NCBI GenBank assembly: GCA_027078545.1 | Contig: JALWXN010000004.1 | Span: forward strand, 384,001-448,000 | Source: Nitrososphaeria archaeon | GTDB lineage: Archaea; Thermoproteota; Nitrososphaeria; Geothermarchaeales; JDFR-13 | Direction of reading: 5' to 3' | Length of the DNA: 64,000 nt | Shown here: positions 32,028 through 42,835 of the stretch, piece after piece | Layout of the letters: every line of letters begins with the position of its first letter | Position numbering within the stretch: the stretch's first letter is position 1 | The notes under the pieces: generated by a model | Seen by the model: only the letters and a program-made list of their open reading frames with translations | Database searches by the model: none | What the model was told of the DNA's origin: nothing | Position numbers and translations under genes: made by a program

Positions 32028-33601
32028 TGCTCTTCAGGGAGTTTGTCGAGGTGTGTAAGAGGATTAGGGCTGCTAAGGGTATAAACGAGAAGATCGGGCT
32101 TATAGCCAGCTATCTCAAGAGGCTGGATAGGGAGGAGTGGATACCCTACATCCTCTTCCTCACGGGCAACCCTGTCCCCGACACTTTGGAGGGGGGCCTG
32201 GGGGTGGGGCATAGGACCCTTGTAAAGGCTATGAAGAACCCGGTTAGGCCCCTGATAGGCGGTGGGCCACCCAGCCTCCTCGAGGTCTATGGGACGCTCC
32301 TCGAGATAGCTGGTATGAGGGGTAGGGATAGCCAGGCCAGGAGGGAGGGCCTCCTGAGGAGCCTGATGGGTAGGCTTAGCAAGGAGGAGAGGGAGTGGCT
32401 GGCCAGTATAATCATGGGGGAGCCTAGGATAGGGGTGATGACTGGGCATGTGCTGAGGGCCCTGGCCCATGCGCTACACATCTCTGAGGATAAGGTGCGT
32501 AGGCTCTACATGCTGAGGGGGAGTATCCATGAGGTGGCGGAGCTACTGGCAAGGGGTGTGGATCCAGCTAGTGTGGGGCCGCGTCTATATAAGCCGCTTA
32601 GGCCGATGCTAGGCACCCCAGCCACGACAGTCACCGAGGCCTTCAACATACTGGGCGTCTCCAGGGCCGCTGCGGAGGAGAAGTATGACGGCTTCAGGAT
32701 ACAGATCCATATCGGGGATAGAGGGGTAAGGATCTTCAGTAGGAACCTCCTAGACGTGACGCAGAGCTTCCCGGAGCTGGTGGAGTACTCCTCCAGGATC
32801 GAGGCTAGGGAGGCGATACTGGATGGTGAGGCTGTGGCCCTGGGTAGGGATGGTAGGCCCCTACCCTTCCAGTACCTCATGAGGCGCTTCAAGAGGGTGG
32901 AGGATGTTGAGGACTATATGGACTCGATACCCGTTACTATGCGGCTCTTCGACGTGATCTACCTTGATGGTGAGCTCCTCATCGATAGGCCATACATATA
33001 TAGGAGGGAGAGGCTGGAGAGGATCGTCCCCGAGGAGTATCTAGCCAGGGTGGTGCTGGACGCATCGTTGTCCGAGGCGGAGGCGATGTATAGGGAGGCT
33101 ATCGAGGCTGGTCATGAGGGGATCATGCTGAAGAGGATGGACTCTCCCTACGTCCTTGGGAGTAGGGGGAGGTACTGGGCCAAGGTGAAGGAGAAGGAGA
33201 CCCTAGACCTGGTGATAGTTGGTGCAGAGTGGGGGCATGGTAGGCGTAGGGGGTGGCTCAGCGACTACTACCTCGCGGCCTATAACCCCAGGACTGGTGG
33301 CTACGAGATAGTGGGTAAGACGTTCAAGGGGCTCACCGATGAGGAGTTCCAATACATGACTAGGAGGCTTAAGGAGCTCGTGGTTAGGGATGAGGGGTAC
33401 AGGGTCTTCGTCAAGCCTGAGATAGTTGTCGAGGTCGACTTCAACGAGGTTCAGGAGAGCCCAAAGTATAGGAGCGGCTATGCGTTGAGGCTGGCCAGGA
33501 TAAGGAGGATCAGGGAGGATAAGAGCCCCGAGGAGGCCGCCACGATAGACGATATAAGGAGGATTTATGAGGAGCAGTTCCGGAGGAAGGCCCGCCTGTG
33601 A
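32024..33601 (+). CDS. lig: ATP-dependent DNA ligase
   Basis: EKYDGFR, LDGE, FDVIY, EGIMLK, WAKVK, LDLVIVGAEWGHGRR, RIREDK. Confidence 0.96.
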   Translation: MMLFREFVEVCKRIRAAKGINEKIGLIASYLKRLDREEWIPYILFLTGNPVPDTLEGGLGVGHRTLVKAMKNPVRPLIGGGPPSLLEVYGTLLEIAGMRGRDSQARREGLLRSLMGRLSKEEREWLASIIMGEPRIGVMTGHVLRALAHALHISEDKVRRLYMLRGSIHEVAELLARGVDPASVGPRLYKPLRPMLGTPATTVTEAFNILGVSRAAAEEKYDGFRIQIHIGDRGVRIFSRNLLDVTQSFPELVEYSSRIEAREAILDGEAVALGRDGRPLPFQYLMRRFKRVEDVEDYMDSIPVTMRLFDVIYLDGELLIDRPYIYRRERLERIVPEEYLARVVLDASLSEAEAMYREAIEAGHEGIMLKRMDSPYVLGSRGRYWAKVKEKETLDLVIVGAEWGHGRRRGWLSDYYLAAYNPRTGGYEIVGKTFKGLTDEEFQYMTRRLKELVVRDEGYRVFVKPEIVVEVDFNEVQESPKYRSGYALRLARIRRIREDKSPEEAATIDDIRRIYEEQFRRKARL

Positions 33602-33645
33602 CTATATAGGTGTGACCACCGTCCCATCCAAGATAATCACAGCAT

Positions 33646-33653
33646 CTATAAAG
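33646..33653 (+). promoter_or_regulatory. Putative TATA box for the structured RNA
   Basis: CTATAAAG about 25 nt upstream of the 5' end of the terminal helix, in otherwise GC-rich DNA. Confidence 0.5.
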
Positions 33654-33677
33654 GGTTTAGACACTCCCAGTAGAGTG

Positions 33678-34168
33678 GCATCGGCCAGCCCGAGGGGCTG
33701 GCCCGGGAGGCCTAGGATGGGCCCCTGGATGAAGGGGTCCAGCCTATAAGGAGGTCTCCAAGGGGGTTCCCCATAGCCCCCTGGAGAACCCTCCGACCCA
33801 CCCCGTTCCATAGGGGATTTGGACCCCAAAGGGGGAGGGGGAGCACCCTGATTCCCCCTGAGGGGTATCACGCATTGGGCCGACCCCTATGGAGCGGGGT
33901 CATGGGCCACTCCGGGTTGGAGGGTTCTCCAAGGAGGGTTATGGGGAGTCCTCTAAGGAGGCCTCCGAAGTGGTTGGACCCTCTCATCCAAGGGCTCGTA
34001 TATAGGCTTGGTGTGCCTCCTAGGCCTCCAAGCCTCTGGGAACCCCCCTGGGGATGGGCAGGGGGGTGGCTGGCCACCACTTACCCCGGCAAGCCCTGAA
34101 CCAGGAGGGTTCCCGACGGGCCCGAGAGGCTTGGGGGTCGTGGGCCGGCCCCTCGGGCTGGCCGATGC
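33678..34168 (+). ncRNA. Unknown large highly structured RNA (~490 nt), or an RNA-structured non-autonomous element
   Basis: 27-bp terminal helix 33678-33704/34142-34168 plus nested long helices; nearly all non-Watson-Crick oppositions are G-U on the + strand; no credible ORF. Confidence 0.7.
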
Positions 34169-34193
34169 ACCCCCGCTAGAGTCCTATCGATTC

Positions 34194-37318: not shown

Positions 37319-37522
37319 TGTTACTTAAAGCAATCATAATTATTTAGGATTTTATCCTCCGCGATTTAATATTAAACGATAACCTGAAACTAATTATAAT
37401 TAGTTGAGTACTATTTTGAGATACCCCTGTCAAAATACAGCTTCTCAATATATACATCTCTGACTAAAGTAAATGTCACATATTATGTTGGTCAAAGATA
37501 GTGATTTTAAGTGGTGATTACC

Positions 37523-37642
37523 ATGAAGTATAATCCACCCGAAATAACATCAATGGACTTACTGTTAGCGCCATTATGCCTCTGTAATTGCAACTGTGGA
37601 CTGCTGTCAGGTTCGGGAGCTGGAGGAGGGAGTGCTAAGTAG
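37523..37642 (+). CDS. RiPP precursor peptide, 39 aa, Cys/Gly-rich core (absent from ORF track)
   Basis: MKYNPPEITSMDLLLAPLCLCNCNCGLLSGSGAGGGSAK; GGTGA SD at 37513-37517; YxxPxI leader; first gene of the operon. Confidence 0.88.
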   Translation: MKYNPPEITSMDLLLAPLCLCNCNCGLLSGSGAGGGSAK

Positions 37643-37658
37643 CCGCTGGTGGCTAAGC

Positions 37659-38567
37659 GTGCACATAAGAGTCATCAGCATCACAAAGACATACGGTGCT
37701 AGTGTCAGAGCCGTAGAATCCCTATCCTTTTTTATAAACTCAGGAGAATCTGTAGCGCTAATAGGACCCAATGGGGCAGGAAAAACGACAACTATACATA
37801 TCATTCTTGGGCTATTGAAGCCTGATGAAGGAGAAGTTTATATAGACGGAGTCAACATGATGGATGAAAAGGAATCATCGGAAATACGTTCTAGAATAGG
37901 TTTTGCACCACAGAACATCGCGTTGGATTTTTTCCTTACTGTTGAGGATAACATCGAACTGTACCTGAAGTTAAATGGACTATCAAGAGCGAATAGGCGA
38001 GAAAGAACAAAAAGGATACTTGAGTTAATGGGTTTATATGAATATAGGAATAGGAGGGTGGAGACGCTTTCAGGAGGATTAGCCAGACGTGTTCACATAG
38101 CGAGGGCACTGGCTCTCGACCCTGAATTGATTATTTTGGATGAGCCTACTGTTGGATTGGACCCTGTTTCAAGGAGACTTTTCTGGGAAGCTCTCAAGGG
38201 ATACATTAAGGAGTCGGGTGCAACACTCCTGTGGAGTAGCCATTATTTGGAGGAGATCGAAAGAAATGCCGATCGAGTGATTCTACTAAATAGAGGCAGA
38301 AAGTTGATGGACGCTCCTCCTGGAGAGATTGTATCCAAGTTTTCGAGACCTGTACTCGAGCTAGAAATACCTAATGAAGAGGTTTTAAAGTCACTTACAT
38401 CGAGATTCGGCGGTAACTATGTAAATGGAAGGCTCATCATTGACGATGTCGACTGGGATGATCTGCCCAAGGTTATAGCAAGCCTGAGTAAGCTTGGTGC
38501 TGAGGTACGGCTGTTGAGGTGGGGTAGTAAGTCACTTGAGGAGGTGTATCTCGAGGTGATGTCATGA
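37659..38567 (+). CDS. ABC exporter ATP-binding subunit (DrrA/CcmA-like)
   Basis: GPNGAGKT, LSGG, LDEPT, SSHY; probable GTG start 37659 after GGTGG. Confidence 0.93.
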   Translation: MHIRVISITKTYGASVRAVESLSFFINSGESVALIGPNGAGKTTTIHIILGLLKPDEGEVYIDGVNMMDEKESSEIRSRIGFAPQNIALDFFLTVEDNIELYLKLNGLSRANRRERTKRILELMGLYEYRNRRVETLSGGLARRVHIARALALDPELIILDEPTVGLDPVSRRLFWEALKGYIKESGATLLWSSHYLEEIERNADRVILLNRGRKLMDAPPGEIVSKFSRPVLELEIPNEEVLKSLTSRFGGNYVNGRLIIDDVDWDDLPKVIASLSKLGAEVRLLRWGSKSLEEVYLEVMS

Positions 38568-39316
38568 GTATTGTTATAACCCTTATCGAGAGGGAGTTCA
38601 AAATACTGTTTAGGAGTAAGTTGCTTATGCTTCTCATGATAGCTCAGCCAGTAATTTTGATATTCTTGTTCGTCCTGTCTATGGGTAATGTAGTCGGTGA
38701 GATAACTTATCGGGGTATCACTGTTAGCTATGTGGAGTTCATGGTTCCAAGCGTGGTTATTCTTACCCTTATGTTTGTTACTATGATGGTGAGCCAATCC
38801 GTTTTCAACGAGAAGTTTTCCAACATGCTGATAATCCTGTTATCTACGAGGATGACAGCTAGGGACTACATCGTAAGTAAATTGATAACCAACACTTTTA
38901 TATCATTAACACAGGCGATGCTTATGCTAACAGCTTATCTATTGATTATAGGAGGAACCAACATAATATCAATTATATATGCTCTTCCACCAATAATAAT
39001 TGCATCACTGACACTTTCGGGGATATATCTCTCTCTTCTAGGGTATCTCAAAACAATTTCAGCTTTCTCGAGTGCCGTAAACATACTTACATTGATAATG
39101 ATATATTCTGCACCTCTTTTCTACCCTTTGGAGGCGATGCCTTTCCCTCTAAATTTTGCTAGTAATGTTAATCCTTTAACATATATTGTTGAATCAACAA
39201 GGATAGGTTATTTATTAAAGAGTTTTGATGTATCAATATGGATATCCTCGATAATTTGTATAATCTTCATATTACTATCCATTCATACAATGAAAAATAT
39301 GCTTACGGAGGTTTAA
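38564..39316 (+). CDS. ABC-2 type exporter permease
   Basis: 6 TM; REFK, YVEFMVP, FYPLEAMP, NPLTYIVE; ATGA overlap with the ATPase. Confidence 0.92.
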   Translation: MSIVITLIEREFKILFRSKLLMLLMIAQPVILIFLFVLSMGNVVGEITYRGITVSYVEFMVPSVVILTLMFVTMMVSQSVFNEKFSNMLIILLSTRMTARDYIVSKLITNTFISLTQAMLMLTAYLLIIGGTNIISIIYALPPIIIASLTLSGIYLSLLGYLKTISAFSSAVNILTLIMIYSAPLFYPLEAMPFPLNFASNVNPLTYIVESTRIGYLLKSFDVSIWISSIICIIFILLSIHTMKNMLTEV

Positions 39317-39318
39317 AA

Positions 39319-40713
39319 ATGATAGAAAGAAGAATGATAATTCAGGATACTCCACTTGAAAAATTAAGGGAGAACTTGAAAAGATTAATATGCATCAAAT
39401 TTAAAAATCTCTATGTGCTTTTTGATCCAGAGACAGTCAGTTGGATCCCCATTAGTGACGATGATATCGCAATGCTTAGAGAATTTTATTGGGGTGGCTA
39501 TCTAAGAGAGAAAAAAGGATTTCATCTGATTGGTAGGATGATATCGTCCTTAATTGGAGTGTCTTATAGAATAATTTATAATAAATTACTTCCCTACCCA
39601 TCAGTGTATTATTTGGAAATCACAAAGGGTTGCAACCTTAGATGTGTTTACTGTTATATAGGTTCTGCGCCTGAATTGCTCAGTTATAAGGGAAAGATGA
39701 AAGTTGAGAACTGGCTTGAACTGATAAATCAAATAAATACCCTTGGGGGCAGAGAAGTAATTTTTACTGGAGGCGAACCATTACTAAAGTATGATGACAT
39801 TTTATCTATCGGAAAGTATGCAAAGGAACATGGTCTTATTACATCTCTCATTACCAATGGTGTTTTGCTGAATTCTAAGAGAGTTGAGGAGCTCTCTAGG
39901 ATTATAGATAACATCACTGTTAGCCTGGATAGTCATATAGGTTCAGTTAATGCGGTTACAAGAGGTTATAGAGAGACACATAGAATAATATATTACATTA
40001 AGAGCCTCCTCGAGAAGGGAGTAAATATTTATGTAAATTGTGTTGTAACAAGAAGTAACGTAAATAGCTTGACTAGTTTCTTGGATCATTTACAAAAGAT
40101 CGGAGTGACCCCTGATAAAATAAAATTTATTCTCATGGCACCAGCAGGAAGGGCTTTAACATTGGATCATTTCTCAGTCAACCCAATGGATTTAGTCAAA
40201 GAGTCATTTTTATATAACCTTAGGATGGGAGTCATTCCTAATCACAGTCGTACGGCTTTTAATAAATTTTCAAGAAAGTACATGTGTGGGGCTTCCGTAT
40301 CTGAATTATATATAGATTGTGATGGAAACGTTTATCCATGTAGAATGTTGGTGACAAAGTCTGGACATCTTGGAAATGTCCTTAAAAACTCATTGAAGGA
40401 CATACTTGACAGTTCCAATAGGTATAATTTTGTTGATTCGATATCCAAACCCAATTTAAAGGTATGTAAAGATTGTATTTATAGAAATGTATGTGCTGGG
40501 GGGTGCAGAGGCAATGTCATAGGTTCCCAAGGTAATTTGACGGATCCTGATCCCATTAATTGCATTATCGTTAAAAATACTTTTCCTCTGTATATGATAG
40601 TCGAATCCTACGGCTTAGAGGTTCTTAGAAATCTGAATGATAGAAATGTATTTCGACAAGTGGAGGTTGTTAGTTCATGGTTGGAAGAAGATTTAGACCT
40701 AAAGAAAGTGTGA
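39319..40713 (+). CDS. Radical SAM/SPASM peptide maturase
   Basis: CNLRCVYC, TGGEP, TNG, VSLDS; SPASM CGA..IDCDGNVYPC..GN..CKDC...CAGGC...C; ATG 39319 after GGAGG. Confidence 0.93.
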   Translation: MIERRMIIQDTPLEKLRENLKRLICIKFKNLYVLFDPETVSWIPISDDDIAMLREFYWGGYLREKKGFHLIGRMISSLIGVSYRIIYNKLLPYPSVYYLEITKGCNLRCVYCYIGSAPELLSYKGKMKVENWLELINQINTLGGREVIFTGGEPLLKYDDILSIGKYAKEHGLITSLITNGVLLNSKRVEELSRIIDNITVSLDSHIGSVNAVTRGYRETHRIIYYIKSLLEKGVNIYVNCVVTRSNVNSLTSFLDHLQKIGVTPDKIKFILMAPAGRALTLDHFSVNPMDLVKESFLYNLRMGVIPNHSRTAFNKFSRKYMCGASVSELYIDCDGNVYPCRMLVTKSGHLGNVLKNSLKDILDSSNRYNFVDSISKPNLKVCKDCIYRNVCAGGCRGNVIGSQGNLTDPDPINCIIVKNTFPLYMIVESYGLEVLRNLNDRNVFRQVEVVSSWLEEDLDLKKV

Positions 40714-40949
40714 TTATAAATAGGTCTGAGTTCGATGACAGGTTTTTAATCTATGATCCAAGAAGTGGGAAAATGTTTTTCACTAATGAAATCGGTGTCT
40801 TAATTTGGTATTTGCTCAGATGTTATGAAGTGGATAGAATTGTAGAAGCTGTTTCCATACTTACAGGAGAGAAGATGGAGACTATTAATAAAGATCTAAA
40901 TAACTTTTTAGAAAGACTTAAGAAACTAGGGTTAGTTGAAATAGAGTAA
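40677..40949 (+). CDS. PqqD-family RiPP recognition element (RRE)
   Basis: 90 aa; LIYDPRSGKMFFTNEIGVLIW.LL...DLNNFLERLKKLGLVE. Confidence 0.9.
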   Translation: MVGRRFRPKESVIINRSEFDDRFLIYDPRSGKMFFTNEIGVLIWYLLRCYEVDRIVEAVSILTGEKMETINKDLNNFLERLKKLGLVEIE

Positions 40950-41018
40950 TTGCCAGTATCTGCATTGACACACGTTATAATCTTCTTAAAGCTAAATACC
41001 ATTGTTAGTGGTGTTCCT

Positions 41019-42748: not shown

Positions 42749-42835
42749 TGGAGCCCCGGCCGGGATTTGAACCCGGGACCTGCGGCTATCCCTTGGCCGT
42801 ACGAGGCCGCCGCTCTACCGCTGAGCTACCGGGGC
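42749..42835 (-). tRNA. tRNA-Thr(CGT) with 12-nt intron at 37/38 (42788-42799); CCA encoded
   Basis: GCCCCGG..GCTC AGCGGTA GAGC..GCGGC CTCGTA [CGGCCAAGGGAT] A GCCGC..CCGGG TTCAAAT CCCGG CCGGGGC TCCA. Confidence 0.94.

Follow-up and report, generated by a model that had tools for sequence, protein, structure and literature searches.

What is made by the five genes that occupy a low-GC island in the genome of a deep-sea-vent Nitrososphaeria archaeon of the order Geothermarchaeales (assembly GCA_027078545.1, contig JALWXN010000004.1)? The 64,000-nt stretch analyzed here (positions 384,001 to 448,000 of the contig, henceforth the window) holds adjacent genes for a 39-amino-acid (aa) peptide, two exporter subunits, a radical S-adenosylmethionine (rSAM) enzyme with a SPASM domain, and a stand-alone recognition element (RRE) for peptides that are made by ribosomes and modified after translation (RiPPs). 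An earlier note on this DNA had read them as a pathway for an exported, thioether-crosslinked peptide of the sactipeptide or ranthipeptide class. As the most likely product of the island, the sequences indicate a small exported peptide with four staples from sulfur to glycine, and we estimate a probability of about 0.8 that the genes form a Cys-to-Gly sactipeptide operon with the chemistry of the StsA/StsB type.

The precursor peptide

All five open reading frames (ORFs), which the earlier note had described as tightly packed and co-oriented, are present in this arrangement, open and intact (Table 1). The precursor has a Y3-x-x-P6-x-I8 leader and a core in which Cys19, Cys21, Cys23 and Cys25 are followed by a four-residue loop and by Gly30, Gly32, Gly34 and Gly36; it ends with SAK, and its computed monoisotopic mass is 3897.83 Da. 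Its start at ATG 37523, preceded by the GGTGA that had been spotted before, is favored over an in-frame GTG at 37511 (43 aa) because homologous precursors open with M-x-Y-x-x-P. Translated in all six frames, the whole 1.14-Mb contig contains the pattern CxCxC-x4-GxGxG a single time, and none of 3001 shuffles of the island (0/3001) contains it; the pattern is not a product of chance.

The same pattern, CxCxCx4GxGxG, is the core of the StsA group, and the StsA product was shown experimentally to be 6 Da lighter and to contain the C-alpha thioethers Cys2-Gly15, Cys4-Gly13 and Cys6-Gly11 (Precord et al. 2023, PMC10288494). In the peptide of the window this core reads C21-C23-C25-x4-G30-G32-G34, extended by the pair C19/G36. 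The best NCBIfam match of the precursor is a weak one to the StsA model NF045558 (13.6 bits, E 0.047). Across the precursor homologues Tyr, Pro, three Cys and four Gly are invariant. The residues between the Cys vary (L/N, A/S/G, A/Q) and are thus not the acceptors. A protein search with the precursor as query returned no candidates, the query being too short and too divergent. Upstream of the gene, at 37391-37404, lies the perfect 14-bp palindrome CTAATTATAATTAG, which is kept in the related genome G002 and represents a candidate TATA or regulator site; a sigma-70 promoter scan of the region stayed at chance level, this model not being applicable to archaea.

The radical SAM/SPASM enzyme

The maturase carries a CxxxCxxC motif (C105/C109/C112) and seven SPASM Cys (positions 323, 341, 383, 386, 392, 396 and 415), and exactly the same seven are found in the corresponding enzyme of Thermococcus prieurii. 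By analogy with the enzyme CteB, we take them to leave a single auxiliary cluster at which one site is free for the thiol of the substrate. Among 113 NCBIfam matches the StsB model NF045574 ranks first with 173.8 bits, about 60 bits ahead of the next (112 bits). Six active-site residues are essential in StsB, namely Y113, T147, I174, S199, K338 and L339 (PMC10288494). Multiple alignment assigns Y113, T150, I178, S202, R342 and M343 to the catalytic-proximal positions of the window enzyme, so that its profile YTISRM shares four of six residues with YTISKL of StsB and differs by two conservative exchanges (K to R, L to M). This mapping is valid because two plasmid-encoded enzymes whose scores of 738 and 744 bits surpass the cut-off of NF045574 read YTISKL at the aligned columns and MftC-like proteins read LGSSAF.

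The AlphaFold (AF2) model of the maturase (predicted local distance difference test score 89) aligns with CteB over residues 21-432, the RRE of CteB included (Z 29, root-mean-square deviation 4.0, 373 aligned residues), and an RRE profile matches the N-terminal region of the family with a probability of 97%, the RRE-like domain extending over residues ~21-85. It follows from these two results that the system holds a fused RRE-like domain in addition to the discrete RRE. Since the closest solved fold is a ranthisynthase and the core contains Asn and Ser, the enzyme might instead form non-alpha (ranthionine) links, for example from Cys to Asn22/24 or Ser29/31, or another cross-link. We consider this very unlikely, because the Thermococcus precursors retain the Gly positions but not these Asn and Ser, leaving Gly as the only conserved residue downstream of the Cys, and because the active-site profile fits StsB and differs from that of CteB (F F T S H Q). 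The ranthipeptide models PapB and SCIFF reach only 105 of 340 and 77 of 425 bits with this enzyme, and the fold matches that put CteB first included no solved StsB structure. The earlier double proposal of a sactipeptide or ranthipeptide can be narrowed to the Cys-to-Gly sactipeptide type of StsA/StsB and BlaA.

Relatives in Thermococcus and bacteria

The nearest relatives of the enzyme, with 34-35% identity, are those of T. prieurii (WP_460126944.1), which was found in a second search, and of Thermococcus sp. 101 C5 (WP_152880027.1), with which the best match of the full library (E 3e-63) clusters. Both Thermococcus clusters sit in low-GC islands and are ordered as in the window (precursor, ATPase, permease, rSAM enzyme, RRE), followed by an S24/S26 peptidase. 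Their precursor genes are absent from the public gene calls (L169:1204-1323 in sp. 101 C5, L443:7141-7254 in T. prieurii), and a GGAGGTGAT site lies upstream of each. The precursor of sp. 101 C5 has Cys19/21/23/25 and seven Gly at positions 30-36, exactly in the register of the window, and its enzyme shows the identical YTISRM profile; ATPase, permease and SPASM enzyme of this cluster are frameshifted. The T. prieurii cluster is intact, and its precursor contains three Cys and five Gly, equivalent to three alternating acceptors. A conserved small ORF next to rSAM homologues, for which the earlier note had proposed to look, was thus found beside the nearest of them, and its product combines a YxxP leader with a core of the form CxCxC..GxGxG. 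The bacterial relatives L038, L040 and L165 (Brevibacillus) encode YxxP...CxCxC-G-x3-GxGxG peptides, and Bacillus mycoides plasmids carry several copies of a precursor with two Cys and two Gly.

The number of Cys equals that of the alternating Gly in the window and in sp. 101 C5 (4/4), in T. prieurii (3/3) and in B. mycoides (2/2). Together with the free variation between the Cys, this correspondence is the strongest evidence at the sequence level for a Cys-to-Gly ladder. It is not universal, as a four-Cys peptide from farther away in the family contains only three Gly, and surplus Gly occur in some peptides with three Cys.

At least six tandem, unannotated two-Cys precursors lie upstream of a YTISKL-type enzyme and a PqqD protein on the B. 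mycoides plasmid NZ_CP128143 (L441:2187-3000). Hungatella-type relatives (L163:6595-6990, L167:1939-2035; profile YTLSRL) combine tandem YxxP-leader peptides that have a CxCxxIGxG core with an S24 peptidase and probably represent a two-Cys side family outside the StsA model. Locus L040:969-10445, where an StsB-like enzyme and a precursor are surrounded by a YcaO protein, an AMP-binding enzyme, an acyl-carrier-like protein, a second rSAM enzyme and a BtrH-like protein, possibly specifies a lipidated hybrid RiPP. A 59-aa precursor with two tandem Cys/Gly cores is encoded at L166:91-270 beside an enzyme of profile YTLSHT and a TolB-like protein.

Phylogeny and distribution

Enzyme trees were calculated as quick IQ-TREE runs with midpoint rooting and Shimodaira-Hasegawa-like approximate likelihood-ratio (SH-aLRT) support, without bootstrap, and do not fix donor and direction of transfer. 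The window enzyme and its two Thermococcus equivalents form a single archaeal clade (SH-aLRT 100) that falls among StsB-like enzymes, a group whose named members are bacterial, and it is set apart, with an SH-aLRT value of 97, from MftC-like proteins as well as from archaeal SPASM proteins of the housekeeping kind. The earlier note had named clustering with cofactor maturases as an outcome that would speak against a peptide pathway; the enzyme instead branches with the StsB-containing group, away from MftC. As in the StsA/StsB group, the rSAM/SPASM gene (PF04055 + PF13186) adjoins that of a discrete RRE (PF05402). A cofactor maturase of the MftC, PqqE, AhbD or NirJ type accompanied by an incidental small ORF is scarcely tenable and largely refuted. 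Weak matches to the AhbD, PqqE and MftC models exist, and PqqD-like domains are so common in the phylum (236/401 genomes) that they are uninformative for the cluster. However, these matches are all weaker than that to StsB and far under cut-off, none of the four models reaches its curated cut-off, no pqq, mft or heme genes lie near the cluster, and the precursor lacks an MftA-type C-terminal Val-Tyr and is conserved beside homologues of the enzyme; tree and active-site profile both exclude MftC-like enzymes.

Several observations weigh against an assignment to the StsA/StsB type. The strict NCBIfam cut-offs are missed both by the enzyme (173.8 of 625 bits for NF045574) and by the precursor (13.6 of 42 bits for NF045558), the enzyme is only 27% identical to a true StsB (NF045574) member, the wider StsB-containing group is only moderately supported (SH-aLRT 84-95), and broken copies were seen in two of the other archaeal lineages examined. 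Furthermore, the YTLSRL profile of the Hungatella locus is paired with precursors that lack a complete Gly ladder, and the active-site profile alone therefore leaves the acceptor unfixed. The enzyme is not a strict member of NF045574 and is, judged by its sequence, a divergent archaeal branch of the StsA/StsB kind.

A sample of 400 genomes from the phylum did not contain the cluster, and no StsB-model match among them exceeded the cut-off. Within the order, the only other genome in which it was found is G002, which belongs to the same genus, is labeled Candidatus Geothermarchaeota and has a 98% identical SurE. Four further motif matches in the 400 genomes have no rSAM gene within 6 kb and were taken as chance, and a weak RRE match in G004 proved spurious, as it lies inside a phosphosugar-mutase-like gene. 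Searches with a degenerate four-Cys DNA pattern yielded repeat-derived matches in JGI metagenomes, and among the matches listed there and in viral contigs there was no related rSAM or RRE gene. Another family of the phylum comprises the RRE-fused rSAM/SPASM enzymes L016 (G187) and L022 (G094) with the profiles FSISHW and FSTSHW, respectively; they are possible separate archaeal RiPP maturases.

The genomic island and its alleles

The 3.7-kb island has a GC content of 31-45% compared with ~55% in the flanks, and its GC content at third codon positions (GC3) is 0.31-0.43 compared with 0.65-0.75. The two genes that border it, surE and that of the geranylgeranyl reductase, lie 80-235 nt apart and without an insert in G001, G003, G004 and G008, of which three are congeners and one is a member of the family. 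The island is horizontally acquired; terminal repeats, an integrase or a transposase were not found at it, and a tRNA-Arg(TCG) gene at 42749-42835 on the minus strand lies 1.8 kb downstream and off its boundary. DNA of the window is present in hydrothermal vent metagenomes. In a sister species the flanking genes are 91-93% and the island genes 96-99.6% identical to those of the window, and this higher similarity of the island suggests that it was exchanged later than the species split.

The sister species is polymorphic and harbors intact, deleted and empty alleles. Contigs of run X3 span the entire island without deletion. In run X4 a deleted allele was found whose joint (39445->40525) shows 4-nt microhomology and whose missing 1079 nt comprise the whole catalytic core of the rSAM enzyme, and the same run contains an empty-site allele (37290->40991), for which the evidence is weaker because the short side measures only 30 nt. 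Sister-species contigs also show a one-base insertion at 40769 that frameshifts the RRE, and the precursor of G002 starts with ACG in place of ATG. These lesions would be expected if the cluster were an incomplete passenger that has lost the S24/S26 peptidase, yields at most a cross-linked, unprocessed peptide and is heading to decay, all the more since both Thermococcus clusters, like several bacterial relatives, have the peptidase gene after that of the RRE and the island does not have it. We nevertheless regard a mere passenger as improbable, because the five ORFs are intact, every catalytic Cys has been kept despite divergence of the enzyme to 35% identity with its nearest relatives, the intact allele persists in the sister species, and a peptidase-less layout is also known from the bacterial relatives L038 and L165. 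The host's own S26-like peptidase (C4:712 kb) was rejected as the cluster peptidase; it belongs to an unrelated locus with no evidence of serving the cluster.

Further low-GC islands are located at 180-187, 365-367, 545-547 and 758-760 kb of C4 and at 84.5-86 kb of C1. Elsewhere in the window, a GC-rich intergenic stretch with imperfect inverted repeats (33600-34190) separates the DNA ligase gene from the next one and has no Rfam match at the gathering threshold.

Exporter genes and stand-alone RRE

Pfam matches bear out the identification of the ABC-2 ATPase, the permease, the CxxxCxxC/SPASM enzyme and the PqqD-like protein that had been made by eye (Table 1). The best NCBIfam model of the ATPase is TIGR01188 (drrA), with a score under the cut-off, and the protein is 40-45% identical to the ATPases of the Thermococcus clusters; the permease, whose gene has a GGTGA at 4 nt, is 40% identical to that of T. 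prieurii. The RRE shares 40-41% identity with its Thermococcus counterparts and probably starts at ATG 40677 rather than at GTG 40710 (79 aa), because its 90 aa fit the 89-91 aa of these homologues. A structure prediction for the complex of enzyme, RRE and precursor scored 0.36 compared with 0.32 for the control and was given no weight in either direction.

Table 1. Features of the sactipeptide-like cluster and its island (positions within the window).
Feature	Position	Strand	Basis
Precursor peptide gene, 39 aa	37523..37642	+	Sequence, weak StsA-model match, conservation across homologues
Shine-Dalgarno-like GGTGA	37513..37517	+	Sequence; 5 bases ahead of precursor ATG
ABC-2 (DrrA-like) ATPase, 302 aa	37659..38567	+	PF00005, E 6e-35
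ABC-2 permease, 250 aa	38564..39316	+	PF01061/PF12698
StsB-like radical SAM/SPASM maturase, 464 aa	39319..40713	+	PF04055 + PF13186; NF045574 best model
Stand-alone RRE (PqqD-like, StsC equivalent), 90 aa	40677..40949	+	PF05402, E 1e-9
Low-GC island in the interval between surE and a geranylgeranyl-reductase-family gene	37319..40990		GC, GC3, empty sites in relatives
1079-nt deleted segment in sister-species allele	39446..40524		L173/L174 junction, G002 contig C15 end

Proposed pathway and role of the product

The 39-aa precursor, whose gene is supported by conservation, would be made from the short mRNA-proximal gene. Its YxxPxI leader may then bind an RRE, in all likelihood the stand-alone element, which would act here as StsC does for StsB; the discrete RRE StsC makes the processing of StsA more complete (PMC10288494). 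If the chemistry of the family applies, the rSAM enzyme would abstract hydrogen from the Gly C-alpha, and the substrate Cys would be activated at an auxiliary [4Fe-4S] cluster to which the protein contributes only three ligands. The expected product is a four-rung hairpin of nested thioethers (C25-G30, C23-G32, C21-G34 and C19-G36) with a mass shift of -8 Da, a precise and falsifiable structure, and the rings would probably be closed from the inner one outward, as in StsA. Export by the ABC-2 pair would follow. Because the island lacks the S24/S26 peptidase that the Thermococcus clusters encode, the leader may be cut off by a protease of the host or may stay in place.

For the role of a peptide with StsB-type chemistry, our tentative choice, at somewhat less than even odds, is that of a secreted competition peptide, because the distribution is patchy and the cluster is gained and lost. 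The same Cys-to-Gly chemistry could also serve a signal or a surface- or metal-related peptide that is not a weapon, which we judge unlikely though a serious contender. The island contains no dedicated immunity gene, the exporter of sp. 101 C5 has decayed along with the enzyme and was not obviously kept for self-protection, the core is small and neutral, and no bioactivity was reported for StsA (PMC10288494). On the other hand, a receptor or regulator is equally missing from the island, and the coexistence of intact, deleted and empty alleles in one population documents rapid gain and loss. Such dynamics are more typical of interference systems. It has also been argued that an archaeon which makes an antibacterial peptide may do without an immunity gene (bioRxiv 10.64898/2026.07.27.741052). 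The exporter retained in the deleted allele was considered as an immunity device, but this was not adopted, given the short divergence time, the 8 nonsynonymous and 10 synonymous changes of the permease and the broken exporter of sp. 101 C5.

A bolder proposal is that the three enzymes represent the first recognized archaea-specific clade of Cys-to-Gly sactipeptides with three- or four-rung ladders, which Geothermarchaeota and Thermococcales at hydrothermal vents share through gene transfer, and that the window encodes a secreted archaeocin with four rings that withstands heat and acts against competitors at the vents. As a whole we hold this to be possible but doubtful; if true, it would give the archaea their first sactipeptide of defined chemistry. 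Archaeal rSAM-RiPP clusters have been predicted, with functional characterization limited to lanthipeptides (Song et al. 2025, PMC12144867), followed by one ranthionine-forming enzyme from a methanogen that acts on a large protein (PMC13692751); a characterized archaeal sactipeptide was not found in the literature. Peptides of the Cys-to-Gly type have to date been produced and examined in bacteria alone, from which their chemistry is already known. The novelty lies in the assignment to this family, in the clade of vent archaea, in the prediction of four rings and in a test organism that is in culture. This organism is the hyperthermophile T. prieurii, whose intact sister cluster allows the native product and its role to be examined. 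The enzyme is probably a thermostable sactisynthase for a simple, extendable Cys/Gly ladder and as such useful for peptide stapling. The interpretation of the earlier note is supported overall, but it had overlooked the bacterial kin, the polymorphism of the island, the fused RRE-like domain and the absence of the peptidase.

Comparison with known systems

The system resembles StsA/StsB/StsC of Streptomyces sparsogenes in its core motif, its ~460-aa rSAM/SPASM enzyme and its discrete RRE, and differs from it by the archaeal host, the fourth Cys/Gly pair and the ABC-2 exporter genes between precursor and enzyme. Archaea are not mentioned in the main text of the StsA study (PMC10288494), and the Thermococcus enzymes may be contained in its supplementary dataset. 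With BlaA/BlaB, as described there with reference to He et al., the cluster would share hairpin Cys-to-Gly C-alpha links, the same four-residue loop and the related enzyme group; that system is bacterial and has two rings, whereas four are predicted here. CteB/thermocellin (PDB 5WGG/5WHY) is also a thioether-forming system of RRE, rSAM and SPASM domains, and CrpC/CrpA of Methanococcus voltae (PMC13692751) likewise comprises an archaeal thioether-forming SPASM enzyme. Both enzymes make ranthionine (non-alpha) links, however; CrpA is a large protein, and CteB has a different active-site profile.

Homologues of subtilosin A (SboA/AlbA), predicted in Thermococcus celer and T. nautili, are a parallel case of a bacterial sactipeptide pathway in hyperthermophilic archaea that lacks the bacterial peptidases, being reduced to precursor, rSAM enzyme and transporter (bioRxiv 10.64898/2026.07.27.741052). 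They belong to another family, as the acceptors of subtilosin are Phe/Tyr and not Gly, and the AlbA model scores far below StsB for the enzyme of the Thermococcus relative of our cluster. The closest counterparts are the clusters of T. prieurii and sp. 101 C5, for which no descriptive paper was found; they share gene order, core register and low-GC setting with the window and add the S24/S26 peptidase.

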